Assembly: GCA_964355135.1 (NCBI GenBank)
Contig: CAYHCG010000003.1
Coordinates: 72,783 to 136,782, forward strand
From: Candidatus Woesearchaeota archaeon
GTDB taxonomy: Archaea; Nanobdellota; Nanobdellia; Pacearchaeales; GW2011-AR1
Direction: 5' to 3'
DNA length: 64,000 nucleotides
Shown: positions 1 through 64,000 of the stretch, in pieces
Position numbering within the stretch: position 1 is the stretch's first letter
Layout of the letters: the number at the start of each line of letters is the position of its first letter
The notes under the pieces: generated by a model
What the model was told of the DNA's origin: nothing
Databases searched by the model: none
The model's input: only the letters and a program-made list of their open reading frames with translations
Position numbers and translations under genes: made by a program

Positions 1-40
1 AATACTATTTTTTTATGAGAATTATTTACGTTCTCATTAT

Positions 41-3020: not shown

Positions 3021-3047
3021 ATCTCACTTCTTTGTAATCTATAACAA

Positions 3048-25377: not shown

Positions 25378-25379
25378 AT

Positions 25380-25416: not shown

Positions 25417-25462
25417 CCTTTGTATTTTTATAATTTAAGTTAAAATTGACTGGGGCGTTTAG

Positions 25463-32479: not shown

Positions 32480-34387
32480 TTACTCTTTAAATTTATGAGT
32501 CATTTTCTTTATTTCTACTTTATTTTTATGTGACTTAGATTTGCCAATTATTAAAATAACAATGACAACAACTACGACTAATGCAAATATCAATAAGAAG
32601 ACTACGACAGTTGTCTTGGAGAAAGTTTTTCCACCTATGACTAAAGATCCATTGCTTAAGTCTTCCTCTCCTACTTCTCCGCAAATTTGCTCTAAAGCAG
32701 GCATGCTCGAAGTAGTTCCGCAATTATTTGCATCTGTACAAGACTTTGATTGCGTTCCGTTTATACACTCGCCAAATTCTGTGCAATTCCAAGATTCAAT
32801 GCAAAGAGCACCTCCCTCAACATCTAGTTCTGAGACATCTAGTTCTGAAGTGTCCTCTCTGCTTGTACATCCACCATCACTTGGATGATCTACTTTTCCA
32901 TCACCATCATTATCACTTCCATCTCTACATTGAGGTGTAACAGAGCTGCCGCCGCCACCGCCTCCTCCGCCGCCACCACCGCCAGGATTATTAGGAATTG
33001 TCTGTCCCTCTACAACTTCATATGTTGAAAATCCAGAAATATTTAGGCTATAATTTCCTCCATTATAACTTACAAAAACACAGGATGTGCAATCCACCCC
33101 ATCCTTTAACACTTTAGGCTGATTAAATCCAATATTATAAAATGTCAGTTTGGATGCAACATTCAATCTTCCGATTCCATCGCCGTTTATGTCAACTCCT
33201 ATTTTTTTGCTATCAAAAGTAATAAATCTATTCAAATCTAATCTTGAGAAATCTATGCTTGGATAGAATTGAATCTTACCATTATTAATATTTTCAATTA
33301 CTACATTGCTTACATTACTTATATTAATCACTAATGAAAAATTAGTGGTGGCTCCATTAAATCCAGAAGAAGCTGGAAGTAAAAAACATCCTGTAGCATT
33401 AAATATGCATTGATTGCATCTCAATAGACCTCCGGCAGGATATCCCTGGACTATACAGCTAGAACTACCTAAGTCAGTTCCATCGCATTGCTCGCTACCC
33501 TCTCTAAAATTGTTATTATTGCAACTTGGTATTTGACACTGATCTAAAACATCATTACACGTCTGTCCAGATGGACAAGGATCTGGCTGATCTAAACAAC
33601 CTAATGTTGCACTGCAAATTTCTGATCCATCACAATATAATCCATTTGTACATAAAGAATTATTTACAATGTGAAATATAGAATCAGTTGGTTCATTGCA
33701 AGAATCGATTGTACATGCAACGCCATCTGTTAGAGAAGGTGCGGTTCCAGGCCTGCATCCTAAAGTAAGGCTGCAAAATTCTACTCCGTTACAAAATGCT
33801 CCATCATTGCAAGCGGCATCACTGGCAACATGACTGCAACTATCGGTTGCTTCGTTACACGAATCAGTCGTACAGGAAACCGAATCAGCGCAATTTACAC
33901 TAGTTCCCGCCTGACATGCATTATTAACACATCTTTCTGTTCCGTCACAATATAATCCGTTGTTGCAATCAGCATCACCGCTGCAAGAAACAACAGATAC
34001 CGTAGTGATTCCAGCGACTGTTCTCAAAACATTACTCCCCATACTGTAATTGCCCCTAAATTGATAAGGCCCAATAGAATTAGGTGCTTTTACAGTATAA
34101 GTATATGTCCTATCCGCAGGATTAGTATAATTAACAAAAATAATTCTCAAGGAATTAGCAGTTAAATTGACAGTCCCTCCTCCAAAGCTGACAAAACTCC
34201 ATCCCGTAGGAATAAATTCCTCTATCGCGTAAAAATTGTCAGTTGAATTAACATCCACGATCATATTTACATTCAAGTTACTATTCCTCATAACATTGCT
34301 GCTGGAAAAGCTCCTACTAACAGTCCCGCCGCTAACAAAAGAAGCTGCGATAACTATTAACAAGAAAAAAATACCCCCTCTTTTCAT
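32480..34387 (-). CDS. type-I membrane-anchored Cys-rich surface protein
   Basis: Signal peptide, then a DUF11-like beta-sandwich (EEFIPTGWSFVS). Then slime-mold-type Cys repeats, a Gly12 linker, a DNDGDG metal-binding motif and a W-x-C module. A C-terminal TM helix precedes a Lys-rich tail. Confidence 0.85.
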   Translation of the reverse strand: MKRGGIFFLLIVIAASFVSGGTVSRSFSSSNVMRNSNLNVNMIVDVNSTDNFYAIEEFIPTGWSFVSFGGGTVNLTANSLRIIFVNYTNPADRTYTYTVKAPNSIGPYQFRGNYSMGSNVLRTVAGITTVSVVSCSGDADCNNGLYCDGTERCVNNACQAGTSVNCADSVSCTTDSCNEATDSCSHVASDAACNDGAFCNGVEFCSLTLGCRPGTAPSLTDGVACTIDSCNEPTDSIFHIVNNSLCTNGLYCDGSEICSATLGCLDQPDPCPSGQTCNDVLDQCQIPSCNNNNFREGSEQCDGTDLGSSSCIVQGYPAGGLLRCNQCIFNATGCFLLPASSGFNGATTNFSLVINISNVSNVVIENINNGKIQFYPSIDFSRLDLNRFITFDSKKIGVDINGDGIGRLNVASKLTFYNIGFNQPKVLKDGVDCTSCVFVSYNGGNYSLNISGFSTYEVVEGQTIPNNPGGGGGGGGGGGGSSVTPQCRDGSDNDGDGKVDHPSDGGCTSREDTSELDVSELDVEGGALCIESWNCTEFGECINGTQSKSCTDANNCGTTSSMPALEQICGEVGEEDLSNGSLVIGGKTFSKTTVVVFLLIFALVVVVVIVILIIGKSKSHKNKVEIKKMTHKFKE

Positions 34388-34568
34388 ATCTTATTATCTT
34401 AATTATCCTTTAAATACTCTATGGGCACTGTCTTCTTTATACAACAAAATTATATTTTCAAGAAGACATATAATAAAGTCTAAATACCCCCATAACTAAC
34501 CATATATGTATTAACTACTCAGTAGTTAAAATAGTAACATTTAAATACTCTTTTTGACTCTATAAAGT

Positions 34569-35987
34569 ATGAAAAAAAGAACATTAGCCTTAGTAATAAT
34601 GACTCTTTTAGTCGTTAGTATCCTTCCTTTGAGTACAGCAAGAGACAATCCTAGAATTTCAAACGATAAAAATATCCGTAGTACAAGAGATACTCAAAAA
34701 ATACAAGGAACATTACAAGTCGACATTTATGATGATTTTGACAACCATAAATCCTGGACAGAATATAGTATAACAGACACTGCAGGAAACACCTATAAAA
34801 TAGATTCTAAAAATGTCAATTTTGAAGCTGGAGACACTATTAGTGTTGAAGGCTCAGTTTCCTCAGGAGAAATAACTGCATCTAAAATTTCCCTAATAAA
34901 CTCTAGCAATCAAAGATCAATTTCTACAGGACAAAGAAATGTTGCTTTAATTTTAGTCAACTCTATAGACAATCCAATTCAGCCAATATCAACAAGAGAA
35001 GCTTGGAACAAAGTATTCAGCCCCAGCACAAAATACTCGTTAAATTCATATATGTATGAAACATCAGAAGGAAAGTTAAAAATAAATGGAAAAGTTTTTG
35101 GCTGGTACACTGTAAATTTAAGTGAAAGTGATTTATGTAATGGTGCTTGGCAAAAAGGGTATAAAGCTGCAGATAATGATATTGATTACAGACAATTTGA
35201 TACACTCATTGTAGCTTTTCCAAGAACAAACTGCCCTTGGGGAGGATTAGCACAACCAGCTCCAAGTAGGACAAACACTTCAGAAGGCTGGATTTACCTT
35301 TATCGAGCAAGTATTAATGGAATGGATATGTTAGATAATGGAGCCGTATCACATGAATTCGGACACATACTACAATTAAGACATGCAAATGATTTAGAAT
35401 GTGATACTACAACTCTAGGAAAACCATGTTCTACAATTGAATATGGAGATCAATTTGACATTATGGGTCTAGCATCAAGTCCTTATAATGGCCACTTTAA
35501 TTCAATAAATATGGAAAAACTTAATTGGCTAAATAATGATAATATTGCAGTAACGTCTAATTCTCAAAGCATTAAAATTTATCCAATTGAAATCCCTAGT
35601 AAAAAAGTCAAGTTTGTCAAGGTACCTATTAACTCCAATTACTCATACTATCTTGAATTTCGAAGACCGATTGGGTACGATATTGATGGTTACAATTTTG
35701 GGATGAATATATACAATAAAGATATTTATGACGGAGTTATGATAAGAATGAATAAAGTTATATCGCCAAACTCTTTTGGGCAGAATAGCGCAGCAAACTC
35801 TCAGTTATTGGATATGACTCCCAAAAGCAACCCTGCCAGTTCTCCAGAATATTGGGTTCAATTACACGATTCATTAGATGTAGTTTTAAGAGAAGGAAAC
35901 ACATTTACTGATCAAGTAAATGGAATTCAAATAACGACTATTGATGTAACAGAGGAATATGTTGAAGTTTCTATAACTAAAATCTAG
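34569..35987 (+). CDS. secreted M11 (gametolysin)-like metalloprotease, minimal paralog
   Basis: Signal peptide. HEFGHILQLRH (HExxHxxxxxH with Gln in place of Gly). YYLEFRRPIGYD block shared with four paralogs. Confidence 0.8.
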   Translation: MKKRTLALVIMTLLVVSILPLSTARDNPRISNDKNIRSTRDTQKIQGTLQVDIYDDFDNHKSWTEYSITDTAGNTYKIDSKNVNFEAGDTISVEGSVSSGEITASKISLINSSNQRSISTGQRNVALILVNSIDNPIQPISTREAWNKVFSPSTKYSLNSYMYETSEGKLKINGKVFGWYTVNLSESDLCNGAWQKGYKAADNDIDYRQFDTLIVAFPRTNCPWGGLAQPAPSRTNTSEGWIYLYRASINGMDMLDNGAVSHEFGHILQLRHANDLECDTTTLGKPCSTIEYGDQFDIMGLASSPYNGHFNSINMEKLNWLNNDNIAVTSNSQSIKIYPIEIPSKKVKFVKVPINSNYSYYLEFRRPIGYDIDGYNFGMNIYNKDIYDGVMIRMNKVISPNSFGQNSAANSQLLDMTPKSNPASSPEYWVQLHDSLDVVLREGNTFTDQVNGIQITTIDVTEEYVEVSITKI

Positions 35988-35998
35988 TTTTAGAGAAG

Positions 35999-36020
35999 TT
36001 TGAAAAACTACCGTTTTTCA
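35999..36020 (+). terminator. perfect 9-bp hairpin after the protease gene
   Basis: TTGAAAAAC-TACC-GTTTTTCAA, 12 nt after the stop. Function inferred. Confidence 0.35.
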
Positions 36021-36130
36021 ACAACTAAGACTATTATGCAAACTTAAAGGTTTTTATCGTGGATGTAGTTTATACGTTTTTTGCGAAATTCAAAAACATG
36101 CATTAAAATTTGGATTTTGCAAAGTTCTCT

Positions 36131-39100
36131 TTAAGCAGTCATATCATGCAAATTATTAATATCTACAGAAAGATGTAAAGGCCCTTTTGGTCCAAATCCA
36201 GGCCCTCCACCCCCTCCAGGTTGTTCAAAACAATAAAGACCATTTTTATCATTACAATTATTTACACCAATATTAGACCAAGTAGATACAATCTTGTCCC
36301 TATTACCTACTTCGCCATTAACTCCGCTTGAAACAGAAGTCCAATTATTGCAATGATACAATCTAGCAACTCCTAAATAATTTGTTCCTGTCCATACTTG
36401 TCTAATTACCGAGATATTATCTCCAAATTCATTGACATTTATTGGATTATTAAGTGTTCCATCTGTCAAATCATCCCAGTTATCAGCAACAATTACACCA
36501 TCAAGTCTTCTGTATGTTTTTGTAGAATGGTAAATTGTAGAATTAGCCCAAACAGTCGGAGTACTCACCCATGCCCTCCATGCGCCTCCTAATCCCCTAT
36601 CAAATGCAGCTTGTTGGCATTTATTATCTGCTCCTTGCAATCCTCCTAAATCCCCATTCCAAGTCTGATTCGTAACAAACACCCGATAATAAGGTTCCAT
36701 CATACAAAGTTGATTGCATCCATCTCCATTTATGGTATTGCCATCTTCACACTGCTCATTTGGTTGACTTACTATTCCATCCCCACAATATGATGCTTGC
36801 CCATTAATTGCATTACATGTGCTATTGCAAACTGTGCATGAGGTTTGTCCATACATGCAACTTTCAGTTAGATTGTTTCCATCATCACACTGCTCTCCTT
36901 CTTCTAAAATATCGTCTCCACACTTAGGCAAATTCAATGTATCACTTTGCATCATTGCACCATTTGTCGTTGTAATAAAATTATAGCTATTGCCCTCCAT
37001 TCCAGCAGTATTCCAATTTGCACTAGCAACCCCATTATCAAACACGGCACTTAAAGGTGTATCTAAAACTTCTCCTCCGTAAATATCAAAAATATCAAAA
37101 ACCGCATTTCCATTACAATCTGGACATTCTACTTCTAAATTAATGTTTGTTGAAGCAGAATTGCTATTTCTCCAGTTAGCTGCCACACAAGCAATCTTAC
37201 TTCCCCCGTTTAGACTTCGGCATATTTTTCCTACAGCGCATTCACTATATATCTTATCAAGGCAATTATCTCCATCGTTTGCCTCCCCGCAGTCCCATGA
37301 AAAGAAATTACCCATACAACCAGCACTTCTTCCTCCTCCATGACTATTGCTACATTCGTCTTCGCAAGCTGTGGGGGCACGTTCACATTTTCCATTTGTA
37401 CAAACTTTCCCAGATGGACAAACTAATTGCATAGAATCGTATAACCCATTATTAACAAAAAGTTCTTTAATAATAATGTTGCTTACACAACTATCAACAA
37501 AATAGTTTCTTTGACTGCTTGGTCCAAGTTCAACAACACCCTTCTTAAGTAAAGAAGAATCGCTAATTGTTGGAGGATTAATAGTATGGTCAGAATCTTG
37601 CATATCACCATTACATACTGCCCTATATAAGCAACTTGAAGGCCGATTACTATTTGTAAAGAAAGTTGTGCATGTTGCAGAAGTTTCCTGCCAGTCATTT
37701 TCTAAACCAGTATTCATGCAATTGGATTGAACTTTATCACATGCCATCTTCTGATTGTTGCAAGCAATCTGTCCGCTTGAATATATGATAGCTGGCGGAA
37801 TTCCGCTAGGTTCAGTTATAGAAGCACAATGTGTATCGCAATCAACAGATACTTCTACTTTTGCACTAGTTTCACTAATGCTTATTGTTTTAATAATTAC
37901 TTCGTTGTCATAATCATGAAAAACTAACCCAACTTTAAGTGCCGAATCTAATGTAGATGAATATGGAGTAGTATCGATTAACATACTATCAGATGTTATG
38001 TGATTTTCATCATTATAACGGGTCTCATCTGTTCGAATAAAGACCCCATCAAAATAATCCTCCTCTTCATTACTTTCTATAGTATCATAATCTAATGATC
38101 TGCGATATTCAACATAATAATTGACGTCTCCCGCAGGTATTTTTAAGGTTTTATAACCGCTACCCGTTAATTCCAAAGCTTTTATAGTATAAGTTCCATA
38201 TATAGCTTCTTTAACATTATTTGGCTCTAACCATTTTATTTCTTCTTTGTGGAGTCCACTATAATGATGGAAATGTCTTAAATATTGATTAACATCTCCA
38301 ACTCTTCCACCCATGACATCCCAATGATCTCCATATTCGTCATAAACTTCAAATGTATTCATTCCCGCATGAGATAATCCTAAATTGTGCCCAAATTCAT
38401 GGACTACAACACTAAAAGTATAATCGTCCATTCCATTAATCAGCGTGCTGGAATAACTATGCATCCCATCAGGCGTGTTTTGATAATATTTTCCTACACT
38501 CCCTGCTCCTCCCGGACCATTACAAATACTCGAAGGCAAGAAGACAATAATTCTATCATAATTTAAAAAGTTAACATCATCGTCTGCAATACTATACAAA
38601 TGACTATTAAAATAATAATCACAGACATCATCACTCACATAATATCCAAATACATCGCCACTTAACCAGGCTTTTCCATAAGAGACTTTTCTTACCCAGG
38701 CAGCAGCGGAATCGCTTAATCCATCTCCATCCGCGTCATAATTTTCATTAAAAAATAAATTTCTTACGTCCGTTACACTCACTTGGTTGCCATCATCATC
38801 ATCATGATTGTTTCCGTTATCCATAAGTAAAACTGCGACTCTCTGTTCCCCCAAACTATGATCAACATCGTCTGAGTCTGCAACACTTCCAAGTATTTCT
38901 AAAGAATCAACATCGATTACTTGTTCTCCCGTTGCAGTATTTCCTAATGTTCCACTGATCTGGATATCCATTCCTGAAATCTCAATGTCCTGTCCTTGCC
39001 CAAGATTTAATCTATATATTTCTTCATAACTTTGATTTGTTTCATTATGAACGATTATATAATATCTGTACTCTGAAGTGCCCTGAATAAAATTATCAAA

Positions 39101-39232
39101 ATGAATTACCGCGCTGTTTCCCCGCAAAGTTATCTCTTCTCCGGAAACGAGATAAGAAGAAAAGAACACAAAGGCAAAAACAAATATAAAGAATTTTATA
39201 ATATTTCTCGTTCTTTGTATGTTTTTATTCAT
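36131..39232 (-). CDS. secreted M11-like metzincin fused to Cys-rich modules and a C-terminal DUF1554/C-type-lectin-like domain
   Basis: HEFGHNLGLSH. Myxococcus-type repeat CGDGIVSQPNEQCEDGNTINGDGC. RVFVT..WNGDLGG..GADNKC ... LYCFEQ block at 36221-36691. Confidence 0.85.
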   Translation of the reverse strand: MNKNIQRTRNIIKFFIFVFAFVFFSSYLVSGEEITLRGNSAVIHFDNFIQGTSEYRYYIIVHNETNQSYEEIYRLNLGQGQDIEISGMDIQISGTLGNTATGEQVIDVDSLEILGSVADSDDVDHSLGEQRVAVLLMDNGNNHDDDDGNQVSVTDVRNLFFNENYDADGDGLSDSAAAWVRKVSYGKAWLSGDVFGYYVSDDVCDYYFNSHLYSIADDDVNFLNYDRIIVFLPSSICNGPGGAGSVGKYYQNTPDGMHSYSSTLINGMDDYTFSVVVHEFGHNLGLSHAGMNTFEVYDEYGDHWDVMGGRVGDVNQYLRHFHHYSGLHKEEIKWLEPNNVKEAIYGTYTIKALELTGSGYKTLKIPAGDVNYYVEYRRSLDYDTIESNEEEDYFDGVFIRTDETRYNDENHITSDSMLIDTTPYSSTLDSALKVGLVFHDYDNEVIIKTISISETSAKVEVSVDCDTHCASITEPSGIPPAIIYSSGQIACNNQKMACDKVQSNCMNTGLENDWQETSATCTTFFTNSNRPSSCLYRAVCNGDMQDSDHTINPPTISDSSLLKKGVVELGPSSQRNYFVDSCVSNIIIKELFVNNGLYDSMQLVCPSGKVCTNGKCERAPTACEDECSNSHGGGRSAGCMGNFFSWDCGEANDGDNCLDKIYSECAVGKICRSLNGGSKIACVAANWRNSNSASTNINLEVECPDCNGNAVFDIFDIYGGEVLDTPLSAVFDNGVASANWNTAGMEGNSYNFITTTNGAMMQSDTLNLPKCGDDILEEGEQCDDGNNLTESCMYGQTSCTVCNSTCNAINGQASYCGDGIVSQPNEQCEDGNTINGDGCNQLCMMEPYYRVFVTNQTWNGDLGGLQGADNKCQQAAFDRGLGGAWRAWVSTPTVWANSTIYHSTKTYRRLDGVIVADNWDDLTDGTLNNPINVNEFGDNISVIRQVWTGTNYLGVARLYHCNNWTSVSSGVNGEVGNRDKIVSTWSNIGVNNCNDKNGLYCFEQPGGGGGPGFGPKGPLHLSVDINNLHDMTA

Positions 39233-39285
39233 GTTTACTTTTTTAAGGAAAATAAATTCCCAAAGTCTTTTTCTTATTTATTTGA

Positions 39286-39639
39286 CTAATCTACACATTC
39301 TTCACTAACAGTTCCGTTATCTATACGATCATGACAACCATAAGGTATTCTGAATTCAGAACACTCACCACTAAGGCTACCTTCCTCAATAGGAGAACAA
39401 TAGCCTACACAATCTTCTCTAGAGTCATCACATGGTATTCCATAGTCGCTTGTTCTAAGATTACAGCCATATTCAGAACTTCTACCCCATTGAGCCCACT
39501 CGCCGTTATAAAAGTTACATACTGCTTCACTCCCTATATTGCCACCATCTCCAGAATAGTTTCTAAAATTACCACAACCAACGACACTAGAAGCTAACAA
39601 ACTCGTCAAGACAGCACCTCTCCTTAAGGAGTTTCTCAT
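39286..39639 (-). CDS. small Cys-rich lipoprotein
   Basis: Lipobox-like LLASSVVGC; eight further Cys in the ~96-aa mature part. Confidence 0.6.
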   Translation of the reverse strand: MRNSLRRGAVLTSLLASSVVGCGNFRNYSGDGGNIGSEAVCNFYNGEWAQWGRSSEYGCNLRTSDYGIPCDDSREDCVGYCSPIEEGSLSGECSEFRIPYGCHDRIDNGTVSEECVD

Positions 39640-39678
39640 AAAAAAAGGATGCCTAATTGTATTTATATACTTTTCGAT

Positions 39679-41670: not shown

Positions 41671-41689
41671 TATAGGTATTTAAATATTT

Positions 41690-43330: not shown

Positions 43331-43334
43331 TCAC
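43284..43334 (-). promoter_or_regulatory. 51-nt segment identical to 51052-51102: BRE/TATA + leaderless start of the protease gene
   Basis: Exact 51/51 identity, checked base by base. Contains GAGAAAGAATTTTAAAT-N20-ATG on the minus strand. Confidence 0.6.
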
Positions 43335-43400
43335 GTATTTATGTGTTATCCGATTATTATTTTCTTGCTAAGCTTCATAAATCTAAGCAGATACTTTAGA

Positions 43401-44687: not shown

Positions 44688-44750
44688 GTTACAATACAGT
44701 GTAACATATAGTATATAAATGTTACGTTTAAACGTAACAAAAAAGTAACC
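44688..44750 (-). promoter_or_regulatory. TATA box bracketed by GTTAC/GTAAC palindromes upstream of the ATPase gene
   Basis: GTTACAATACAGTGTAAC (44688-44705), ATATAGTATATAAAT, perfect 18-bp palindrome GTTACGTTTAAACGTAAC (44721-44738), and a further GTAAC at 44745. Confidence 0.5.
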
Positions 44751-44760
44751 ATAAACTTAA

Positions 44761-46281: not shown

Positions 46282-46346
46282 ATTATTTATTCACACTCAT
46301 TTATATATTTTCAATATTTATATTTCTATTCATTTTGAACTAAATT

Positions 46347-51098: not shown

Positions 51099-51102
51099 TC
51101 AC
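51052..51102 (-). promoter_or_regulatory. 51-nt segment identical to 43284-43334, directly after the ATPase stop
   Basis: Same sequence. The ATPase stop codon (51099-51101) lies inside the identical block. Confidence 0.6.
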
Positions 51103-52382: not shown

Positions 52383-52463
52383 ATTTTGTATTGAACAAAT
52401 TTGATATTATTTGTATTTTATATGATACATTTAACTATTTAAATCTTTCTAAACACTCTAAGC

Positions 52464-55400: not shown

Positions 55401-58400
55401 ATTCTTATTTGAAGTCATACTTACATTGCAATATATATTCTCAGGACCATAAACAACATTGCATCCTTGCCATCCAGTGAAGGTATTATCAGCATCAGCA
55501 AATGCTATCAATGCCACATTTGTATTTGGGAGATATGTGTAGTTGCATGTTGTACCGCAATAAATCAAGAAATCATCGCTATAAATAAGTCCGCCCCCAG
55601 TTTTGTTTACAGTTAAATTGTATCTAGGAATAGGTGCGAAAGTAGCATTTACATTCTTATTTGAAGTCATACTTACATTGCAATAAATATTTCCTGGTCC
55701 AAATACAGAGTTGCATCCAACCCAACCAGCAAATGTACTTTCAGTGAAAGCAGTGGCATTTAAAGTTACATTGGTATTTTGAAGATAGGTATAATTACAA
55801 TTTAATCCGCAATTGATAGTAAAGTCTTCACTTGTAACAAATCCCGTTCCGCTGCCAATTTTATTTACAGTTAAATTGTATCTAGGAATAGGCATGATAA
55901 AATTAGCCGTAGTTATTGTATGGTAAGTCATATTTATGCTACAAACATTTCCATAATAGAAATCACAATAACTCCAACCAGCAAATTCATGCCCGGCATA
56001 AGGCACAGCAGTTAAATTTACTATAGAACTATGATTAAATGTAAAGTTTTGTGATATGCAACTAGGCCCACAATTAATTCCTATCGGATTACTTGTGATA
56101 GTCCCGTTTCCATTTCCCTCTTTTGTAACATTTAAATCTGGTTTTTCAAATACAACTATAAGATTATTATCTTGATCCATAGTCATATTACATATGTTAT
56201 TTACCGAATCAAATGAATAACAATTTCCAGAATATCCAAAATACACTCCGCTTCCAGAATTAAATTTAATTGTTATATTTGCATTTCTATCAAATGTATA
56301 ATTTTGATTTTTGCAATTCGTCCCGCAAATCAAATTTCCAGGGTTAACTATTGTAATTCCGGTTCCGGTTCCATCTTTAATTAAAGTTAAATTAAAAGTA
56401 GCAGGATAGTTAAAAGTTGCATTTACATTCTTATTTGAAATCATAGTTACATTGCAGAATACATTGCCAAGCCCATAAACAACATTGCATCCTTGCCAAC
56501 TAGTAAATGTACTTCCTGCATCAGGATAAGCAGTCAAAGTAATATTTGTAAAATGATTAAATGTATTATTACAAGTTAGCCCGCAATTAATCAAAAAATC
56601 ATCGCTAACTATAAATCCTGTTCCACTTCCTGTTTTATTTACTGTTAAATTAAATTTAGGAACCAATAAATTAAAGTTAGCAATCACAAAACTAGGAACG
56701 AGAATATTAACTTGACATACTCCAATACCAGAACAAACTCCTTCCCATCCGCTAAACTCATATCCTACAGAAGGAAAAGCAGTTAAATTTATAGTAGTAC
56801 TTACATTAAAATTAAGATCTTGTGACAGACAACTCACATCGCAATTAAAGTTGGTTTGGTTTGGGCTGCTTGTCGAGTTTACAATTCCTAAACCATTACC
56901 TGACTTAGTCAGATAAAGTGTAGGCCTGTCAAAATAAGCAACCACAGATCTAGCAGAACTCATAGTCACATTGCATATAAGATTATACCCCATGTAATAA
57001 AATGAATCGCAATTATCCACTATATTCAAAGGAAAACCGCTTCCAGAAAAGAAAGTCAAACTAACATTAGCATTTCTGTTGAAAGTCGCATTTTGGTTTA
57101 GACATCCGATCCCACAATTTATTCCAGCAGGAACGCTTACCGCCGTTCCTGTTCCTGTTCCTGCCTTAGTTAAAGTCAAATTATAGAAAGGTGGAGGAAG
57201 ATTAAAATTTGCAACGACCATAGTATTAGAGTTTATTACAAGATTGCACACTCCAACCCCTGAGCAAGCTCCCGACCAACCCGTAAAGTCGTACCCTGGA
57301 CTAGGCACTGCAGTTAAACTAACTTGTGCTCCTTCACTAAAAGTAGCATTCTGAGATAAGCAACCTGTCATACAACTTATTCCTGCAGGAATGCTAGTAA
57401 CATTTCCCGTGCCAGTTCCAGCTTTATTCACGGTTAAATTATAGGGTCCGCCATTACCAGGAGGACTTCCACTTACACAATTACTAGTATCGATAAGGCA
57501 CCCATAACAGTTCAAGAATCCACTTGAATATGAGGGATTATAACTTTTGCAAGAAGCAGATTCTCCCATTCCAAAATTATATTCGTCGCACTGTTCTTCA
57601 TCTTCTAAATATCCATTACCACAATATCCCAATCTTATCGGAGATACCAAATAAAATCTTGATCTATTAGGATTTGTAGGAGGGACTAAAGTTATAAATT
57701 CAAACCTAGCTTCACCTATTAATCTTTGACTTAATCCACCAATAATCAACCCATATTTAGTTGCCCCTGTTGTATTTTTTACACTAAAATTGCCTGCCCT
57801 TTCTACATAAGTTATTCCCTCAAAAGAATAATTAGTAATATTAATTAAAGTAATATTGTAACCATTTCTAATTATGGATTTAGAGATATTCAATTCTACA
57901 AGATTTGTAAAATTCTCGCAATAATTATTACAGTCCGCTCCACCGTCACATTGTTCAGTTCCTTCCTTTATTCCGTTTCCGCAAAGGACATCAAAATTAA
58001 AATTGGGTGAAACAGTTAAATTAAAGTAAGTTTTTCTGCTCTCTCCACCCATAGTTCCGGTTACATTTATTTTATAAACTCCAGTCGAAGCTGATGTCAA
58101 TGAACTTATATTCATCCTTGTAATACATGTAGGGTTGCAACTTGTTGGAGAGAATGTTGCACTTACTCCGCTAGGAAGGCCACTTACAGAAAAAGCAACA
58201 GGAAATACAGAACCATCCCAATAAATTGCAGTGATGTTATTTATTACAGAAGACCCCTTATAGACTGTTTTATCTCCATTATTTGTAAGTGAAAAATTCT
58301 GCTCTCTTACTGGCTGGCAATTGCTAAAATCGAGATTGCAAACTGAATTACAGTTTAAATTTCCATCGATATAACTTGGGTGATAATTTAAACATGTTTG

Positions 58401-59171
58401 AATAATATCATAGCCCTTTGAGTCATAACCTAATCCATAATCTTTAATATCACATTGTTCGCCCGTTTCTAATAAAGCATTTCCACAATAATTCAATCTA
58501 ATTGGTGCAGCAATCTTTAATTTTGCAGAAACAGGGGAGCCTCCAGAATAACTAAATTCACTATCAATTCTTACCAAGTTAGTGATATATTGACTACGAG
58601 CCATGCCTAAGGCATTATAGATTCTTGATTTATTTATTCCAGCAGGATTTTTAACGCTTATATTAATTGCAGATATAAAACTAATTGTAGGAAATCCTTC
58701 AATTTTTATTGTGTATCCATTTAAAACAGCTGATTGTCCAGGAGTTAATTCTCTATAAACAGAATTCTCACAATAATTATTGCATCCGCTGCTAATATTA
58801 TTATTTTGAACACTGCCAAGATCACATTGCTCCCCTAGACCAGAGTCTAAGACCCCATTTCCGCAGGAGTCAGTTTGTGGACTCAACCAAACATCTTCAG
58901 AGACTTCATCTTCGCTAGACGTTTGAGGATCACCATCCCCCTTAGAATCAGAACCTACAATAAAATTTTTAATCTCATCAACAACATCACTAAAAACAGA
59001 ATTTCCCGTAATTGCATTTGCGCTCTGTGCATCAGAATTAGAGATTAAATAATCAGCATTTCTGTTTTTTGATAAAGTAAAAAAACCAAACGAAAAAGCA
59101 AACAATAAAACAAGAAGAGATAGTGTCGCAGCCAAAGCTAGCCTTTTATTCTTTCCCGCCCTCTTTTTCAT
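52464..59171 (-). CDS. giant (2235 aa) surface protein: duplicated Cys-bounded N-modules, about 20 or more InlB-B-repeat-like modules, Ig-like modules, Cys-rich repeats and tail
   Basis: Signal anchor. Recurrent unit YNLTVNK.G.GTG.V.S.P.GI.CG..C...F......V.LTA.P..G..F.GW.G.C.....C.V.M. Tail identical in type to 46347. Confidence 0.88.
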   Translation of the reverse strand: MKKRAGKNKRLALAATLSLLVLLFAFSFGFFTLSKNRNADYLISNSDAQSANAITGNSVFSDVVDEIKNFIVGSDSKGDGDPQTSSEDEVSEDVWLSPQTDSCGNGVLDSGLGEQCDLGSVQNNNISSGCNNYCENSVYRELTPGQSAVLNGYTIKIEGFPTISFISAINISVKNPAGINKSRIYNALGMARSQYITNLVRIDSEFSYSGGSPVSAKLKIAAPIRLNYCGNALLETGEQCDIKDYGLGYDSKGYDIIQTCLNYHPSYIDGNLNCNSVCNLDFSNCQPVREQNFSLTNNGDKTVYKGSSVINNITAIYWDGSVFPVAFSVSGLPSGVSATFSPTSCNPTCITRMNISSLTSASTGVYKINVTGTMGGESRKTYFNLTVSPNFNFDVLCGNGIKEGTEQCDGGADCNNYCENFTNLVELNISKSIIRNGYNITLINITNYSFEGITYVERAGNFSVKNTTGATKYGLIIGGLSQRLIGEARFEFITLVPPTNPNRSRFYLVSPIRLGYCGNGYLEDEEQCDEYNFGMGESASCKSYNPSYSSGFLNCYGCLIDTSNCVSGSPPGNGGPYNLTVNKAGTGTGNVTSIPAGISCMTGCLSQNATFSEGAQVSLTAVPSPGYDFTGWSGACSGVGVCNLVINSNTMVVANFNLPPPFYNLTLTKAGTGTGTAVSVPAGINCGIGCLNQNATFNRNANVSLTFFSGSGFPLNIVDNCDSFYYMGYNLICNVTMSSARSVVAYFDRPTLYLTKSGNGLGIVNSTSSPNQTNFNCDVSCLSQDLNFNVSTTINLTAFPSVGYEFSGWEGVCSGIGVCQVNILVPSFVIANFNLLVPKFNLTVNKTGSGTGFIVSDDFLINCGLTCNNTFNHFTNITLTAYPDAGSTFTSWQGCNVVYGLGNVFCNVTMISNKNVNATFNYPATFNLTLIKDGTGTGITIVNPGNLICGTNCKNQNYTFDRNANITIKFNSGSGVYFGYSGNCYSFDSVNNICNMTMDQDNNLIVVFEKPDLNVTKEGNGNGTITSNPIGINCGPSCISQNFTFNHSSIVNLTAVPYAGHEFAGWSYCDFYYGNVCSINMTYHTITTANFIMPIPRYNLTVNKIGSGTGFVTSEDFTINCGLNCNYTYLQNTNVTLNATAFTESTFAGWVGCNSVFGPGNIYCNVSMTSNKNVNATFAPIPRYNLTVNKTGGGLIYSDDFLIYCGTTCNYTYLPNTNVALIAFADADNTFTGWQGCNVVYGPENIYCNVSMTSNKNVNATFAPIPRYNLTVNRIGAGDGYVFSSDTIISCPTICNYTYLPNTNVTLTAYPDFGSTFVNWTGCNSVFGPGNSLCNVTMTSDKNVIANFSTTSAVRQFQIKLWQEGVVNGTVTSTSVPDNGNQFNCGSNCDYQTRIFNNGTNVSLLFTSPVNYYVAYYLGCDNLYQDHNPSTWNRCNVTLYVNRTVYVSFEKPTLELYKKSAASSGTVTSNPSGINCGLTCQEDYFDYNFNSVVTLIANPSSGYSTSWTGCGVVYGLGNNLCNVTMNDWKTVNVTFTLSSFNFNLSNNGSRTVIQGSNVTNIINATLISGATQAVSFLAYGLPPGTTASFIPTSCNPTCSTILNLTTSASTPVGTYTIYVNGTSGGLTNTTSFTLTVNQLNYNLTLNKKGTGTGTVNSTSIPSQVNQIGCGAICLNQNVSFKVNANVTLNATASPGNTFAGWVGCNSVYGPGNILCNVTMNSAKTVNATFNIQQFTLTTSVIGSGNITGNGISCLTGSTGDCSETVNTGTLIALTATPLEGWTFVEWGGGCSGTGSCVVTMDASKSVSATFSNSISIYTVNVAKAGTGNGIINSTPTGINCPGVCTYSFETFQTVLLNATAMSGSSFVSWTGCPVENGNLCTVNRTNNPTLLTANFIDNSFNFGLSNLGTRKVIRGNSNTTLINATLITGTPQSVSFLAYGLPAGVSANFTPASCTPNTVCSTNLTLSTSVPSVSGTYTIYVNGTSGLVTKTTTFALNITQGYVLTVNKTGIYTGMVNSTTGGINCGSTCSRGFAPNTPVVLNAYPDSVPGFSIMSWSGCSASNPTLCSITSMNSDKNPVWEYTKECGQDSECSNNLYCDGAETCNLGNGHCQLGTAPNINDNIACTVDSCDEANDRINHTSNNALCSNGLFCDGSESCSTTQGCQDSADPCSAGLTCDEQTDICENVVCNTGADTAPYGDCDGVIESNEITNYINGYYAGNVNINDLSNALGVYL
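55354..55950 (-). repeat. near-identical tandem repeat units (252 and 258 bp) inside the giant gene
   Basis: ACAGTTAAATTGTATCTAGGAATAGG starts at 55357, 55609 and 55867. Copies 1 and 2 share a run of ~80 identical nt. Confidence 0.8.
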
Positions 59172-59221
59172 CTCTGGTAGAGATTTTTCTCATTTAAAAT
59201 CTTTTTGCTCTGGATTAAATA

Positions 59222-61654
59222 TTAATTAAGATTATTTTTGGGAAGATTTTCAATATAGGCCCGCAAATCTTCATCCTCAACCCATCTTAATACGGCTTTA
59301 TGAGAGACAGAAATTCCGCGATCGCGTTGTAAGATTTGAGAAGTCCCAAACCCAGTACCCTTGTCTTTGTATACTTCAAATACTGCTGCAATTTGTTCAG
59401 TTGAACTTTTTACCCCGCGATATCTCCCCTCAGGTATTCCAAGCCCGTTATATATCGTCTCAGCCGGACTAGGATCTTTTTGTAATTGCAATCTCCCCAT
59501 TACTCTAGTAAAAATTCTTTTAATTTGAGGATTTTCTTTTAGAACCAAACCCAATATTGCTCTATTTCTAATAGTATAGGGGGCAAGTTTAGTTCGAAGA
59601 TCTTCCAGATGATCATTAACAGTCTGCGTATCTTGAGTTGTAACTCCATATTTCCTCCACACATCTGTAGAGCTAAGGGCTCTGGAAGAACCATTATTTT
59701 TATTATGATTTTCAACGTAGTGAGGAACAAAATATAAAAGGTGTTCTGGTAAATCTGCACGAGTGGTAATTTTTCCTTCCTTGCGTCTTGCATTAACTAT
59801 TTTTCTTAATTCGCTCAAACGTGCTGAAGGTGAAGCTTCAGGCGTACTTTCATATTCTAATCCTAAAGCTTCATAAACTTTATCTCTTTCTAACTCGGAT
59901 TGTCTAATAACTCTCTGTAATCTTTCATACAATTTTTTATCCGCTTTCTGAAGTTGGGTAGGAGCGTTAATTCCTTTTAATTTTGTAAATTTACTAACGG
60001 CATGCACAACTGATTCTCCATCGAAACTTCTTCCTTCTCTTCTTATAGAATAACCGTTTCCTTCTAAAACAGAATCTTCATCCGGCGAAGAGTCAACTAC
60101 ATTATCAATACCTAAAGAACGTTCCCCGAACCGGGCATTTTTTGCTTTTAACTGCTCAAAAATTCTTTCCAGTTTAGCTTTCTGTATTCTAAGTCTACTA
60201 ACTTCCTCAAAATCTACATCCGCTAGTTCATAGATCTCTTTTATGCCTCCTTCAAAATGCCTGATAAGTCTAAAGCCAAATTGATCGTTAATATCTTGAA
60301 CAGTAGGATAATGTGATGCTTTAATTTCTTCTCTTACATATTCAACTACTTCTTGCCGAAGTTTTCTTTTATCTTCCTCAGAAGTAATTCTAAAAGCGGG
60401 CACAAATGGAGCAGCTTCAATAGGCTCGAAACTTATCTCGGATTTTGAATCATAAATATTAAAAAATGCCTCTCTTACTTTTTTTACGGCATTAAGTTGA
60501 ATTTTTCTTACTGTCTCCATTGTTACACCAATCTCTTCACCAATATCTTCCAAAATTCTAGTTTTTCCAGCAAATCCAAACCTCTCTTTTATAATTTTCA
60601 TCTCTCTTTCATCCAGACCTGCAAGATTATATCTAATTACATCTCTAACAAGTTCTGATTGTGATGTTTCCTTCAAAGCCCGCTTATATTCTTCATATGC
60701 TCTAGCTTCTCCAAAAGAATGCGTACGCGGATCATAAGATTCTCCAGCTTCATGTCTATCTTCCTTCATACCATATCTCAAAATCGCTTTTTCCAAACCC
60801 TTGCAGATATAAGTTGACAATCTTGTTCCAAAGTTAGGATCGAACCTCATAATACAATCGCGGATAGTTTTGGCTGTCTCTATTTCCCGCCAGTCTACTC
60901 CTCTCTTTTCTCCCATATACTTTCCTAAATTAAAAGTAATTTGCGTCAAAAAGTCCATCATTGCTGTAACCCTAAGATAAGACGTCGCCATTTCACTAAC
61001 CTTGCCCATATTATTTTCTTTATCTTCTGACTGCAGTATTTCCCCCGCAACTCTAGACATTTCTCTGCGATGATGGTTAAAAGACTTTAGAAAATAAGTT
61101 TCTTCTTCGTCAGACATTTCGTGCTGAAAACGGCTTTTCCCCTTATGCAAAACTCTCTCTCTTTCAAAAGCGCTTAATTCCTCTAGATCAGACCTAGTAT
61201 AAGTCTTGTCTTCATAAAAAATAGTCCTTCTCTCTCTCAGTACGCTCTCCAAACCTCTCTCGTCCAAAGGAATAAAACCATTGTCAAAATCAGGGCTTTC
61301 AAAAACATGGGGATATTCAATTAATAAAGCATAAGCTAAATTTTTAGGTATTTTTGTTTCTCCTGTAAAGCCAAGATATCGTTCTGCTATTTCCCTTAAA
61401 CGAGTGCTCCTTTTAATAGACTCTTGGTCAAAATTTCCGTCAAAAACCCTTTCTAGAGTACTTAAGCTATGCACTAAAGAAGCGCTTGCTTCCCTACTCA
61501 CTCCATCAGTTAGATCTTTGGGATAAAAAAGTAGTCTGCCTCTATGTGAATCAACTGCTTCTACTTCTGCCCTATACCAACCGTTTTCTATAGCTTTCAT
61601 TGTTCTTAAAAAGTCTAAAATTTGAGCATATCTGTATACTGTTTTAACAGTCAT
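59222..61654 (-). CDS. 810-aa protein with bacterial sigma-70 region 2 and region 4 motifs plus long N- and C-terminal extensions
   Basis: Region 2-like: IRDCIMRFDPNFGTRLSTYICKGLEKAILRY. Region 4-like: LDEREMKIIKERFGFAGKTRILEDIGEEIGVTMETVRKIQLNAVKKVRE. Additional C-terminal HTH-like GTSQILQRDRGISVSHKAVLRWV. Confidence 0.8.
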   Translation of the reverse strand: MTVKTVYRYAQILDFLRTMKAIENGWYRAEVEAVDSHRGRLLFYPKDLTDGVSREASASLVHSLSTLERVFDGNFDQESIKRSTRLREIAERYLGFTGETKIPKNLAYALLIEYPHVFESPDFDNGFIPLDERGLESVLRERRTIFYEDKTYTRSDLEELSAFERERVLHKGKSRFQHEMSDEEETYFLKSFNHHRREMSRVAGEILQSEDKENNMGKVSEMATSYLRVTAMMDFLTQITFNLGKYMGEKRGVDWREIETAKTIRDCIMRFDPNFGTRLSTYICKGLEKAILRYGMKEDRHEAGESYDPRTHSFGEARAYEEYKRALKETSQSELVRDVIRYNLAGLDEREMKIIKERFGFAGKTRILEDIGEEIGVTMETVRKIQLNAVKKVREAFFNIYDSKSEISFEPIEAAPFVPAFRITSEEDKRKLRQEVVEYVREEIKASHYPTVQDINDQFGFRLIRHFEGGIKEIYELADVDFEEVSRLRIQKAKLERIFEQLKAKNARFGERSLGIDNVVDSSPDEDSVLEGNGYSIRREGRSFDGESVVHAVSKFTKLKGINAPTQLQKADKKLYERLQRVIRQSELERDKVYEALGLEYESTPEASPSARLSELRKIVNARRKEGKITTRADLPEHLLYFVPHYVENHNKNNGSSRALSSTDVWRKYGVTTQDTQTVNDHLEDLRTKLAPYTIRNRAILGLVLKENPQIKRIFTRVMGRLQLQKDPSPAETIYNGLGIPEGRYRGVKSSTEQIAAVFEVYKDKGTGFGTSQILQRDRGISVSHKAVLRWVEDEDLRAYIENLPKNNLN

Positions 61655-61663
61655 TGAAATTTC

Positions 61664-61677
61664 AAATTTTTAATAGA
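61664..61677. promoter_or_regulatory. perfect 14-bp palindrome upstream of the sigma-like gene
   Basis: TAGACTTAAGTCTA, 10-23 nt upstream of the ATG (61654) and adjacent to TATTAAAAAT. Confidence 0.4.
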
Positions 61678-61804
61678 CTTAAGTCTAAAAATGCCTAAAT
61701 TTTGAACGTTTTTAAGGCTTATTATGATCGCTTATAATCATTAAATTACCTTAATTTCTTCGTTTTTAAGACTAAGTTAAACGAACTTTAAGAAGAAAAT
61801 ACTC

Positions 61805-64000
61805 TCAAGGGCAATTATTGATATATTGCATTAAAGTGTTTGAAAAAACCGCAATGTCGGTTTGCCCTTCGTAATACTGTTGAGTTAATGTAAAAAGATC
61901 CACTCCTCCGACATCTTCGCATGTCGCAATAGTATAATTCACAATTAGCATAGGTTTATTTTCATTAGAGTTGCCTGAATAAAATCCAGGTTCAAATTTC
62001 GTTGGCTGCCCGTTATTAGGAGTACTTGCAAATAAGTCATATCCTGTTCTTAATCCAAACGTACTAAATCCATTTCCGTTTATATTGTTTAATCCGTTTT
62101 GATTTAGTGAAAAGATCACTTTATCACTTCCATCATCCCAACGCTCGCTAAAATCGTACCCTTCACTTAATTCTGCCGGAGTATTAAGAGAACTGAATTG
62201 ATCAAAATCCCCAGAACTCAAAGTTGGAGGATTTGCTAAACTAACCGGTACCAGAGTAATAAAGTCATTTGAATCTGGATGAGTATTAGCGTCTCTTGAA
62301 GATCTCTTCTTTAAATGTAATTCCGCAGAATCTAATGTCGCACCATCCGGAATTGAGATAGTATTAAAGGAAATCGCAGTTCTAGTTATCAAGTATGGAT
62401 AAACATTATTGCTATAAAGGGAAAGAAAATAATGACCTTTTGTAATATCATTAAGAGCGCCTTGACTGCTTCCTCTAACTCCGCTCCAAGATCCTCCGCT
62501 TGCAACAATAGATCCATCGCTCGCGTCTGCGTCAAATATTGCAGTACATGAATTTTCTCCATTAAACCTATGTCCTTGTCCACAAATAAAATCACTGCAT
62601 TGAGAAATATCGAAATAGCAACTATTGCAGTTTAAAGATCCTGATCTATATCCAATACTCTGACAAGTTTGTCCATTAAAGTTATTGCCGTCACATTCTT
62701 CGCCAATATTAATATTATTATTTCCACAATGGGGCATTCCAATTTTCACTTCAGCATATTCATCATTAATATTGATTAATGTGATAAAAACGTCATTTGC
62801 TGGGTCATTAATTAATAATTCGCTTCCCCCATCATAAAATGTCTCACCAACTTTTAACACACTATCCAAATTGTCCTGCCCAACAAAGCCAGTAAGCGGA
62901 TGAGTGTCTATGAGTTGAGTGTCGCCAGTATTAGAATAAACATCAGTATGAATAAAAACCCCACCGTACAAATCGTCCTCATAATAATCTATGATCTCTT
63001 GGTCAAATCCAATTGGTCTCCTATACTCAACATAATAATTATCATTGGTGCCAGGAATCGGAATCTGTAGTGACTTTATTCCACCAGTTGCTTCAAGAGG
63101 TTCAATGTGATGCGTGCCTTGACTTGCCTGCAATATATTGGATTCATCAAGCCAGCCCGCAACTCTTTTATGATGTGCATTGTAATGCCCCCTCAAGGTA
63201 GGCCACCCCATAACGTCAAAAGTAGTCATAGAAATTAAAGAATTGCAAGTATTTCCCGAAGAGAAGTTCCCGCAATCCCAATAATTTGCATGCCAAAGTC
63301 CAAAGTTATGGCCCAACTCATGTTCGATGCTACCGTCATCTATTCTATCAACTCCGTTTATTTTAATGATGGATAAAGAAATTATTCCATCAGGGGTTTG
63401 AACATTTGGTACCAAGCCTAGACTCCCGCTCGATCCACAATTAGGGTTGGACGGAAAGACAAAAATCAGCCGCTGATACTGTGTAAAATCAACTTCAAGG
63501 TTAGCCAAACTTAACGCTTCATTAAAAGCTGGACTATCACGATCAGCAACACCACACAATTGTAATAATGAAACCTCCAGAGTATACCATCCGTGCACAC
63601 TCCCATTCAGCCAAGTCTGACCATAAGAGACTTCTCTTACCCAACTATTTACTGCAGTTTCATTGCTTTCGTTGAAAATGCGATTCCAAACTTCTTCTTT
63701 AGACATAGGCTGAATTGGATTTTCTATGCTATTAACGAGAATTACTAAAACTTTCTGCTCTCCTAAATTGTCTTGTACAGAAGCAACATTGCCTTGCTCA
63801 AGAATTACTAATTCGTCAACAATAATTTCGCCCTCTCCAGAGATAGTATTTCCCAACACCCCATTTACTTCTATAGACCTTCCAGAAATTAAATTAGACT
63901 CCTCAAATAAATTTAACCTATACCTCGCCCCTTCAGGAGTTATCAAAAAATAAACATTTTCGCTCGTTCCATCAGTATTATGGTAATGGAAGACTTCACT
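61805..64000 (-). CDS. secreted M11-like metzincin with DNRLRE-like sandwich and tail; 5' end beyond the window
   Basis: HELGHNFGLWH, NYYVEYRRPIGFD, tail LTQQYYEGQTDIAVFSNTLMQYINNCP. The frame stays open to position 64000, so the TTG at 63946 is not the real start. Confidence 0.8.
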   Translation of the reverse strand, partial: SEVFHYHNTDGTSENVYFLITPEGARYRLNLFEESNLISGRSIEVNGVLGNTISGEGEIIVDELVILEQGNVASVQDNLGEQKVLVILVNSIENPIQPMSKEEVWNRIFNESNETAVNSWVREVSYGQTWLNGSVHGWYTLEVSLLQLCGVADRDSPAFNEALSLANLEVDFTQYQRLIFVFPSNPNCGSSGSLGLVPNVQTPDGIISLSIIKINGVDRIDDGSIEHELGHNFGLWHANYWDCGNFSSGNTCNSLISMTTFDVMGWPTLRGHYNAHHKRVAGWLDESNILQASQGTHHIEPLEATGGIKSLQIPIPGTNDNYYVEYRRPIGFDQEIIDYYEDDLYGGVFIHTDVYSNTGDTQLIDTHPLTGFVGQDNLDSVLKVGETFYDGGSELLINDPANDVFITLININDEYAEVKIGMPHCGNNNINIGEECDGNNFNGQTCQSIGYRSGSLNCNSCYFDISQCSDFICGQGHRFNGENSCTAIFDADASDGSIVASGGSWSGVRGSSQGALNDITKGHYFLSLYSNNVYPYLITRTAISFNTISIPDGATLDSAELHLKKRSSRDANTHPDSNDFITLVPVSLANPPTLSSGDFDQFSSLNTPAELSEGYDFSERWDDGSDKVIFSLNQNGLNNINGNGFSTFGLRTGYDLFASTPNNGQPTKFEPGFYSGNSNENKPMLIVNYTIATCEDVGGVDLFTLTQQYYEGQTDIAVFSNTLMQYINNCP

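Follow-up and report, generated by a model that had tools for sequence, protein, structure and literature searches.

A probable flexible surface-protein island of metzincins and adhesin-like proteins in a Woesearchaeota-type archaeal chromosome

A life attached to other cells is assumed for DPANN archaea, and for the Woesearchaeota we know of neither the hosts nor the molecules that make the contact. Large extracellular proteins have been described in Woesearchaeota and Pacearchaeota (PMC8204110), and islands of surface-protein genes have been described in archaea (PMC4535781). Such archaeal cell-wall islands have been linked to pressure from hosts or viruses (PMC4535781), and the same has been proposed for the giant surface proteins of DPANN archaea (PMC6642349, PMC8204110). 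Here we analyse 64,000 nucleotides of a Candidatus Woesearchaeota genome (contig CAYHCG010000003.1, positions 72,783 to 136,782), which we call the window, and in particular the genes for large, Cys-rich, putatively exported proteins that fill it from position 32,480 to its end. We consider it probable that these genes form a lineage-specific flexible surface-protein island with passenger genes, set in a Woesearchaeota-type DPANN chromosome. A preliminary description of the same DNA had proposed a novel composite system of a composition not seen before. A contiguous, paralogue-rich secretome island that combines protease and adhesion domains is indeed present, but large DPANN extracellular proteins and archaeal surface islands were already known (PMC8204110, PMC4535781, PMC6642349) and the claim of a novel composite system is not supported.

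The island and its chromosomal setting

A flexible surface-protein island occupies a fixed site, differs in content between relatives and is dominated by surface genes, and all three properties were found here on the two relatives compared. The left half of the window consists of archaeal housekeeping genes (aIF5B, S6e, aIF2-gamma, CysRS and others), by which the source organism is a Woesearchaeota-type DPANN archaeon, and the conserved aIF5B-S6e-aIF2-gamma backbone adjoins the island. The closer relative, a Hainich groundwater assembly (L002, GCA_964358765.1), has aIF5B, DUF2238, S6e and aIF2-gamma at 69-85% identity (aIF2-gamma 80%). After aIF2-gamma it carries only a metzincin, P0003, which is 37% identical to the 472-aa protein of the island and is its positional counterpart. 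The second relative, a Candidatus Woesearchaeota metagenome-assembled genome (MAG; L006), has an aIF2-gamma of 66% identity followed by NUDIX, UvrD-type helicase, Rpb7 and PAP2 genes, with no surface genes after aIF2-gamma. The beta-helix gene that lies between S6e and aIF2-gamma in the window is absent from both. Three independent assemblies of the closer relative (L002, L003 and L004) end 140-290 bp after the metzincin next to aIF2-gamma, an observation that strain heterogeneity or repeats past that gene could explain. The comparison of 37% identity for the metzincin with about 80% for its neighbours also gives a measure of surface-gene turnover relative to the core genome, and turnover this rapid fits an interface under host or virus pressure.

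The features of the island are as follows (coordinates in the window, strand, description).

28019..30925, minus: 968-aa exported protein with beta-helix, Cys-rich repeats and laminin G (LamG) domain (Beta_helix and Laminin_G_3 in Pfam; choice_anch_Q in NCBIfam)
32480..34387, minus: 635-aa type-I membrane protein (hydrophobic segments 4-24 and 587-620)
34569..35987, plus: 472-aa minimal metzincin (HEFGHILQLRH and Met-turn)
36131..39232, minus: 1033-aa metzincin with Cys-rich middle, DUF4215/myxo_disulf repeats and DUF1554 (endostatin/C-lectin-like), by profile matches
39286..39639, minus: 117-aa Cys-rich putative lipoprotein (lipobox VVG/C; 7.7% Cys)
39679..41670, minus: 663-aa exported protein with DUF4215, DUF1554 and C-terminal Hint/bacterial intein-like (BIL-like) domain (PT-HINT 55.3 bits)
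41690..43291, minus: metzincin of about 533 aa (546-aa open reading frame, ORF) with C-terminal cassette (TATA at -27 relative to the ATG at 43291)
43277..43334, minus: ATPase-to-metzincin junction, copy 1, 58-nt repeat (B recognition element (BRE)/TATA and first codons of the metzincin signal peptide)
43401..44687, minus: 428-aa AAA_14 + DUF4143 ATPase, cytoplasmic, PDC-S01 candidate (Pfam; PADLOC PDLC04787)
44761..46281, minus: 506-aa FG-GAP beta-propeller with Cys-rich repeat and C-terminal cassette (FG-GAP_2, six repeats, E 1.7e-100; cassette at 464-509)
46347..51059, minus: metzincin of about 1570 aa (1583-aa ORF) with C-terminal cassette (profile searches; cassette hidden Markov model, HMM)
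51045..51122, minus: ATPase-to-metzincin junction, copy 2, contiguous
51099..52382, minus: 427-aa AAA_14 + DUF4143 ATPase, PDC-S01 candidate (39% identical to the 428-aa copy)
52464..59171, minus: 2235-aa repeat protein (Flg_new_2, that is InlB B-repeat, 8 repeats, E 2.7e-65; repeat families D1-D4)
59222..61654, minus: 810-aa cytoplasmic sigma-70-like protein (Sigma70_r4)
61805..64000, minus: the 731 C-terminal aa of a 781-aa metzincin, with catalytic core, DNRLRE-like domain and C-terminal cassette (Peptidase_M11 24.8 bits)

Thirteen genes lie between 32.5 kb and the window end, with ORFs and sizes as given in the preliminary description; 12 of them are on the minus strand, where 11 had been counted, and the 472-aa metzincin is the only one on the plus strand. 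The 968-aa beta-helix gene is an outlying member that stands apart from the others, as an insertion between S6e and aIF2-gamma. At the right edge, the 781-aa metzincin gene is completed on an independent contig of the Logan assembly (L001). Past the window end, positions 1-3139 of this contig encode a 93-aa membrane protein, a 435-aa protein without a family match, a CAP-domain protein and one gene fragment, and the last two both end in the C-terminal cassette of the island. Because the contig continues with such cassette-bearing genes, the island must be at least 37 kb long. Its clustering is not a matter of chance, since the genes are tandem paralogues. Within otherwise diverged island paralogues there are stretches of DNA with 82-97% identity, which point to recent recombination or gene conversion. 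The island probably grew as genes were duplicated in tandem, domains were shuffled and sequences were converted locally.

A variable region at which assemblies break could also be an artefact (a chimeric contig) or foreign DNA (an integrated virus or some other mobile element). Both features are seen here, but GC content is even along the window, and the GC content and skew of the island are continuous with its flanks. There is no integrase, capsid or terminase gene in the window, a PHROGs scan returned generic sigma and Hint matches only, and Rfam and tRNA scans of the window gave no matches. The window lies on a contig of 149.5 kb; the independent Logan assembly, which covers the right end, and the NCBI/ENA copies agree with its sequence, and the adjacency of aIF2-gamma and metzincin recurs in the related MAG. 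The preliminary description had named a chimeric assembly as an outcome that would overturn it, and by these data the contig is not chimeric. The provirus or chimera reading is largely refuted, and we regard an artefact or foreign origin as highly improbable.

All 11 putative exported proteins begin with a charged and hydrophobic N-terminal signal, and neither the two ATPases nor the sigma-like protein has one. The exported residues amount to 9,489 aa or 44.5% of the window, in line with the earlier estimate of about 9,500 aa and 45%. Class III (pilin-type) signal peptides were considered and rejected, as most of the N-termini end in ordinary AxA-like sites. It had also been claimed that each gene has its own TATA-N20-ATG promoter. 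A TATA-like hexamer at -20 to -36 does precede 10 of the 12 testable island genes, but the pattern is not distinctive, being present at 12 of 28 non-island genes as well. As these include core genes such as aIF5B and S6e, it is the normal leaderless promoter of this genome. Judged by this pattern the island genes are separate leaderless transcription units, and it tells us no more than that; apart from the generic TATA, the island showed no promoter motif of its own.

Exported proteases and adhesin-like proteins

The five paralogous metzincins (472, 546, 1033, 1583 and 781 aa) have in common the zinc motif HExxHxxxxxH and a Met-Gly turn that does not vary; identities among them are 25-42% over some 450 aa. 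The H, E, H and third H are invariant in 12 aligned sequences, as is the Met-turn (M299-G300, in the form D-x-M-G, in the metzincin alignments). The Gly of the extended motif HExxHxxGxxH is found in three of the five; it is replaced by Q in the 472-aa and by K in the 546-aa protein. The smallest of the five shows the basic layout, with a signal peptide, an N-terminal beta domain, the catalytic domain and a C-terminal beta domain. The five had been called M11-like, which holds for the zinc motif and the Met-turn, but only two of them pass the Peptidase_M11 gathering threshold (PF05548; 21 bits), one at 26.3 bits with 46 residues aligned only and one at 24.8 bits. One further paralogue reaches 14.1 bits, and the 472-aa and 1583-aa proteins have no match. 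The M6 profile TIGR03296 scores 31-40 bits, below the NCBIfam cut-off of 110.8. The AlphaFold (AF2) model of the 472-aa protein (predicted local distance difference test, pLDDT, 78.8; predicted template modelling score, pTM, 0.80) has the Bacillus anthracis InhA2 zymogen 4yu6 as its best PDB match (E 2e-9, TMq 0.53), with the catalytic domains of ADAM proteins and fragilysin far behind. Because the M6 profile stays below its threshold yet the fold match to 4yu6 is real, we describe these metzincins as InhA-like in fold and not as M6 by sequence. The family is widespread in metagenomes at 23-33% identity, usually as a single gene in unrelated contexts, for example in a cargo cluster of the type IX secretion system (T9SS) in Bacteroidota. 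A metzincin profile search of a collection of genome contigs, in which the genome of the window is evidently not among the species representatives, gave no matches.

An all-against-all comparison of the island proteins reveals mosaic sharing of modules, and the proposal that domains are shuffled between N- and C-terminal cassettes is borne out by it. The 1583-aa protein has the order N-terminal cassette, catalytic core, DNRLRE-like middle domain, Cys repeats, InlB-B-repeat/Ig-like array, Cys repeats and C-terminal cassette. It shares its N-terminal cassette with the 968-aa protein, which has an N-terminal hydrophobic segment and also carries the C-terminal cassette (HMM match at 920-968), and its DNRLRE-like domain with the 781-aa protein. 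The 2235-aa protein consists of a signal or anchor, Cys-rich modules, at least 8 InlB-B-type repeats with Ig-like modules, Cys repeats and the C-terminal cassette. InlB-B/Ig arrays (Flg_new_2) are thus common to these two giants; over its C-terminal 500 or so aa the 1583-aa protein has 52% identity to the 2235-aa protein, and patches of the DNA reach 82-87%. DUF4215 and DUF1554 occur together in the 1033-aa and 663-aa proteins, and Cys-rich repeats are found in six proteins, the main Cys repeat having no family match. The 635-aa protein, with 6.0% Cys, is composed of a signal peptide, an N-terminal domain without a family match, Cys-rich repeats similar to those of five other island proteins, a poly-Gly linker and a C-terminal transmembrane helix. 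It has no Pfam or NCBIfam match, and its N-terminal domain recurs in the 663-aa protein, whose likely start is at 41655. The 117-aa putative lipoprotein likewise has no family match in Pfam or NCBIfam profile searches.

Most of the domain assignments made in the preliminary description agree with these results. Profile matches were obtained for the FG-GAP propeller, the InlB-B repeats, the beta-helix, LamG, DUF1554, the myxococcal Cys repeats and Hint, and the membrane-anchored Cys-rich protein and the Cys-rich lipoprotein have the expected C-terminal helix and VVGC lipobox. The DNRLRE-like domain is matched below threshold only (E 0.006 and 0.017), and for the slime-mold-type Cys repeats no family match was obtained.

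Many of these proteins end in a Cys-bracketed C-terminal cassette of about 45 aa, whose HMM matches nine proteins, all of them in the island, with no other match in the window or in 88 loci. A canonical DxNxDGxVxxxE loop is present in one of the nine cassettes (a sub-threshold EF-hand). Dockerin gave no match at E<=10, no cohesin was found, and the cassette has no PDB relative. One possible reading is that the cassette is a new archaeal surface-anchoring or sorting tag on at least nine cargo proteins, coupled to the sigma-like paralogue, the ATPases or both, so that the island would be a DPANN-specific host-interaction module split over many genes in the manner of SPEARE. We consider this unlikely as a whole.

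The Hint/BIL-like domain at the C-terminus of the 663-aa protein (39679-40100, minus) has an intact Cys1, TPNH (TxxH) and terminal HN, with Lys at +1 and 14 residues following. From these motifs the domain probably self-cleaves, rather than splices or delivers a toxin. A polymorphic toxin (PT-HINT) was considered and rejected, given that only 14 residues follow the terminal HN and that no toxin or immunity family was found. A diversity-generating retroelement acting on the C-lectin-like domains was also rejected: the annotated ORFs contain no reverse transcriptase domain, there is no template repeat, and in the test for template/variable pairs the repeats of the island are paralogous coding segments.

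How might these proteins act together? Each gene would be driven by its own ordinary leaderless archaeal promoter, and the signal peptides suggest that the disulfide-rich products are exported by Sec. Part of them is probably heavily N-glycosylated. The metzincins would act through their InhA/M6-like cores, with the N-terminal beta domain probably a latency or pro-domain, on proteins on or near a partner cell or on the secretome of the cell itself. Attachment could be mediated by the FG-GAP propeller, the beta-helix and LamG domains, the InlB-B/Ig arrays and the endostatin/C-lectin-like DUF1554 domains. The C-terminal cassette, with its EF-hand-like loop, probably tethers the proteins to a common surface partner, and the Hint domain of the 663-aa protein probably cleaves itself. 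Attachment to a host and degradation of its proteins is a reasonable inference from these domains.

The same proteins might instead serve nutrient scavenging or self-maintenance, with metzincins that break down protein from the environment or mature the envelope of the cell itself, and repeat proteins that are structural glycoproteins of the envelope or similar to those of surface layers. InhA-type peptidases of the M6 family also modulate the secretome of their producer (4yu6 entry title), metzincin relatives occur singly in free-living bacteria, and there is no known host. In the 2235-aa protein there are 94 N-x-S/T sequons, a density of 4.2 per 100 aa that is mostly 3-10 times that of the other proteins, and charged residues make up only 10%. 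The protein is a candidate heavily glycosylated envelope or fibre protein, and its sequon content resembles that of archaeal envelope glycoproteins. However, the fast divergence set out above, together with the expansion of paralogues, fits an arms race better than housekeeping, and adhesion-type modules dominate the island. Furthermore, small-genome DPANN archaea are generally symbiont-like (PMC8204110). Scavenging or self-maintenance therefore seems rather improbable to us as the main role of the island.

ATPase and sigma-like genes within the island

Three genes of the island encode putative cytoplasmic proteins. The preliminary description correctly recognised two of them as AAA+ ATPases; Pfam finds AAA_14 and DUF4143 domains in both, and there are no membrane or secretion features in either. 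Both are full-length matches to PADLOC PDC-S01 (E 3.3e-107 over residues 24-428 and E 1.3e-115 over residues 27-427). PDC-S01 is a single-gene defence candidate composed of an ATPase and a PD-(D/E)xK domain, not validated experimentally (PMC12988326), and DUF4143 is such a PD-(D/E)xK domain (PMC3424549). Among systems of this kind it ranks fourth in frequency across prokaryotes, archaeal genomes hold about 10,000 copies of it, and DPANN archaea are enriched in single-gene defence candidates (PMC12988326). By their profile matches, both island genes are independent PDC-S01-type candidate defence genes.

The junction between each ATPase and the metzincin behind it runs from the final 21 nt of the ATPase gene through the BRE/TATA into the first signal-peptide codons, and the two copies are identical at 20 of 21 and 56 of 58 positions (about 97%). 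The flanking 200 nt are only about 57% identical, and the flanking genes have 39% and 29% protein identity. The first pair (43277-43421) has a 67-nt insert bounded by GTGA repeats, with the conserved ATPase 3' end at 43401-43421. The near-identical junction may be due to gene conversion or to a conserved cis element.

In the 810-aa protein, residues 18-405 or so form a DPANN sigma-like module, and residues from about 415 to 810 are helical with winged helix-turn-helix (wHTH)-like repeats. A word-based homologue search with this protein found only itself, so the relatives given here come from an exhaustive HMMER search, which returned 1,333. The best full-length relatives have 350-390 aa with Sigma70_r4 (and region 2 in some); their alignment covers residues 18-405, with an N-terminal domain that is specific to the family. 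The earlier label of a sigma-70-like protein is right as far as region 4 is concerned (PF04545; 40 bits against a cut-off of 24.1), which also has PDB matches to sigma region 4. Region 2 (PF04542) has no match in it; TIGR02937 aligns at 267-396 with 35.1 against 42.9. In the relatives P0012-14 and P0019 region 2 scores 19.5-26 bits, near or just above the 24-bit cut-off. The AF2 model retrieves sigma factors in Foldseek with probability 1.0 over about 290-450 aligned columns, at low template modelling scores. The C-terminal extension of about 400 aa is unique to this protein, and its repeats resemble those of proteins that weakly match LexA-type wHTH domains and Mrr-like nucleases. The 810-aa protein has about 32% identity to the copy in a close relative, against about 80% for the housekeeping proteins of the two, and we therefore take it to be a divergent paralogue of the DPANN sigma-like family. 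There are no bacterial RNA polymerase genes in the window.

Sigma-70-like genes have been reported as prevalent in Woesearchaeota (PMC8204110). The closest relatives of the island gene, which encode sigma-like proteins of about 360 aa, do not stand among surface genes but directly after the ribosomal genes L18e-L13-S9, in three assemblies (L089 4445-5560, L092 4090-5181 and L094 8001-9170). These proteins have an N-terminal domain of their own (HSxSVLExVFxGNF, PQNLAY, PDFNNGFxP), which bacterial sigma factors lack. The conserved slot behind ribosomal genes suggests a core, not an accessory, role of the 360-aa type in these archaea.

The preliminary description saw in the island a dedicated attachment and degradation apparatus that includes cytoplasmic components. 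In such an integrated machine, export or assembly would be powered or regulated by the ATPases, and the sigma-like protein would serve as a dedicated transcription factor. The tight clustering on one strand would fit this, as would the near-identical junction of about 80 nt and the embedding in the island of a sigma-like gene that is a unique long paralogue. A precedent might be seen in the SPEARE proteins of Nanohaloarchaeota, which unite protease, adhesion and nuclease modules (PMC6642349). The ATPases, however, are complete PDC-S01 genes that lack membrane and secretion features, each island gene has a separate promoter, and the canonical sigma-like genes are linked to ribosomal genes. Neither an AAA_14 ATPase nor a sigma-like gene occurs in any of 80 metzincin loci from metagenomes, nor in L005, L096 and L097. 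We find such an apparatus quite unlikely, and the claim of dedicated cytoplasmic components is not supported. In the reading that we prefer, a flexible surface-protein island, the two ATPase genes and the 810-aa sigma-like gene would be passengers of the variable region and not parts of a machine.

Several points weigh against this preferred reading. Both ATPase genes directly precede a metzincin gene, with nearly the same junction, which hints at some coupling. The lack of co-localisation elsewhere is a weak test within DPANN, because most of the 80 loci are short, distant and probably bacterial. In one DPANN assembly (L094, GCA_016188825.1; 1-15636) two AAA_14 genes, a sigma-like gene and two large proteins, a 1588-aa FG-GAP/DUF4215/CARDB protein and a 1039-aa S8 protease, lie within about 17 kb, a neighbourhood loosely similar to the island. 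The comparison of loci covers two relatives only. Searches with the cassette found nothing significant in a collection of 5.8 billion proteins or in the PDB, but the cassette is too short for this to count as a real absence. Finally, we infer export, proteolysis, glycosylation, anchoring and any host from sequence.

Two observations concern the housekeeping half of the window. A MazF/PemK toxin gene (27131-27478, plus) lies just upstream of S6e, and in L002 (4427-5937) VapB and PIN genes lie just upstream of S6e with a second PIN gene just downstream, so that from the gene content toxin-antitoxin turnover appears to have taken place at one site by S6e. A short tandem repeat, ATTACGTACT, is present in 3 copies at about 25378-25420, directly upstream of a minus-strand nucleotidyltransferase gene (24565-25377).

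Comparison with described systems

The island provides a delimited list of candidates for cell contact, namely the InhA-like metzincins, the FG-GAP, beta-helix-LamG and InlB-B adhesins, the predicted self-cleaving Hint protein and the C-terminal tag. It does not by itself reveal a new molecular machine, and its ATPase and sigma-like families are already catalogued in archaea. We suggest the C-terminal cassette and the sigma-like paralogue as leads for further studies.

Of its single components, the metzincins resemble InhA (MEROPS M6; 4yu6) and gametolysin (M11) in the HExxHxxGxxH motif and the Met-turn, and InhA2 most in fold. Identity to InhA2 is about 11%, however, the flanking domains differ, and the motif Gly is replaced in two island paralogues. 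The ATPases agree with PDC-S01 in the full-length HMM match, in architecture and in being single genes, but PDC-S01 has not been described as standing directly before metzincin genes. The sigma-like protein corresponds to the DPANN sigma-70-like family fam00359 (PMC8204110), whose full length of about 360 aa is spanned by its residues 18-405, and shares region 4 and the sigma-like fold. It differs in its extra 400 or so aa and in its location in a surface-gene island instead of after L18e-L13-S9. Co-located exported proteins that end in one short homologous module recall dockerin modules and the C-terminal domains of T9SS cargo (as in L096), but for the cassette no family match, cohesin-like partner or sorting machinery was found, and the likeness is an analogy only.

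As a whole, the island shares with the large proteins described in PMC8204110 and with SPEARE of the Nanohaloarchaeota (PMC6642349) very large exported proteins, the combination of lytic or protease domains with adhesion domains, including laminin-G, and a proposed role in host contact. In contrast to these, it has no murein transglycosylase, serine protease or restriction-enzyme domain, and its functions are distributed over about 11 genes and not united in one polypeptide. Its arrangement resembles that of flexible 'metagenomic' or cell-wall-associated genomic islands such as island 1 of Haloquadratum walsbyi (PMC4535781), which also occupies a fixed site, carries surface (glyco)protein genes, varies among close relatives and is diversified by recombination. 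The island described here differs in belonging to a DPANN archaeon, in its metzincin and adhesin paralogues and private C-terminal cassette, and in that its strain-level variability is deduced from two relatives and assembly breaks instead of population data.

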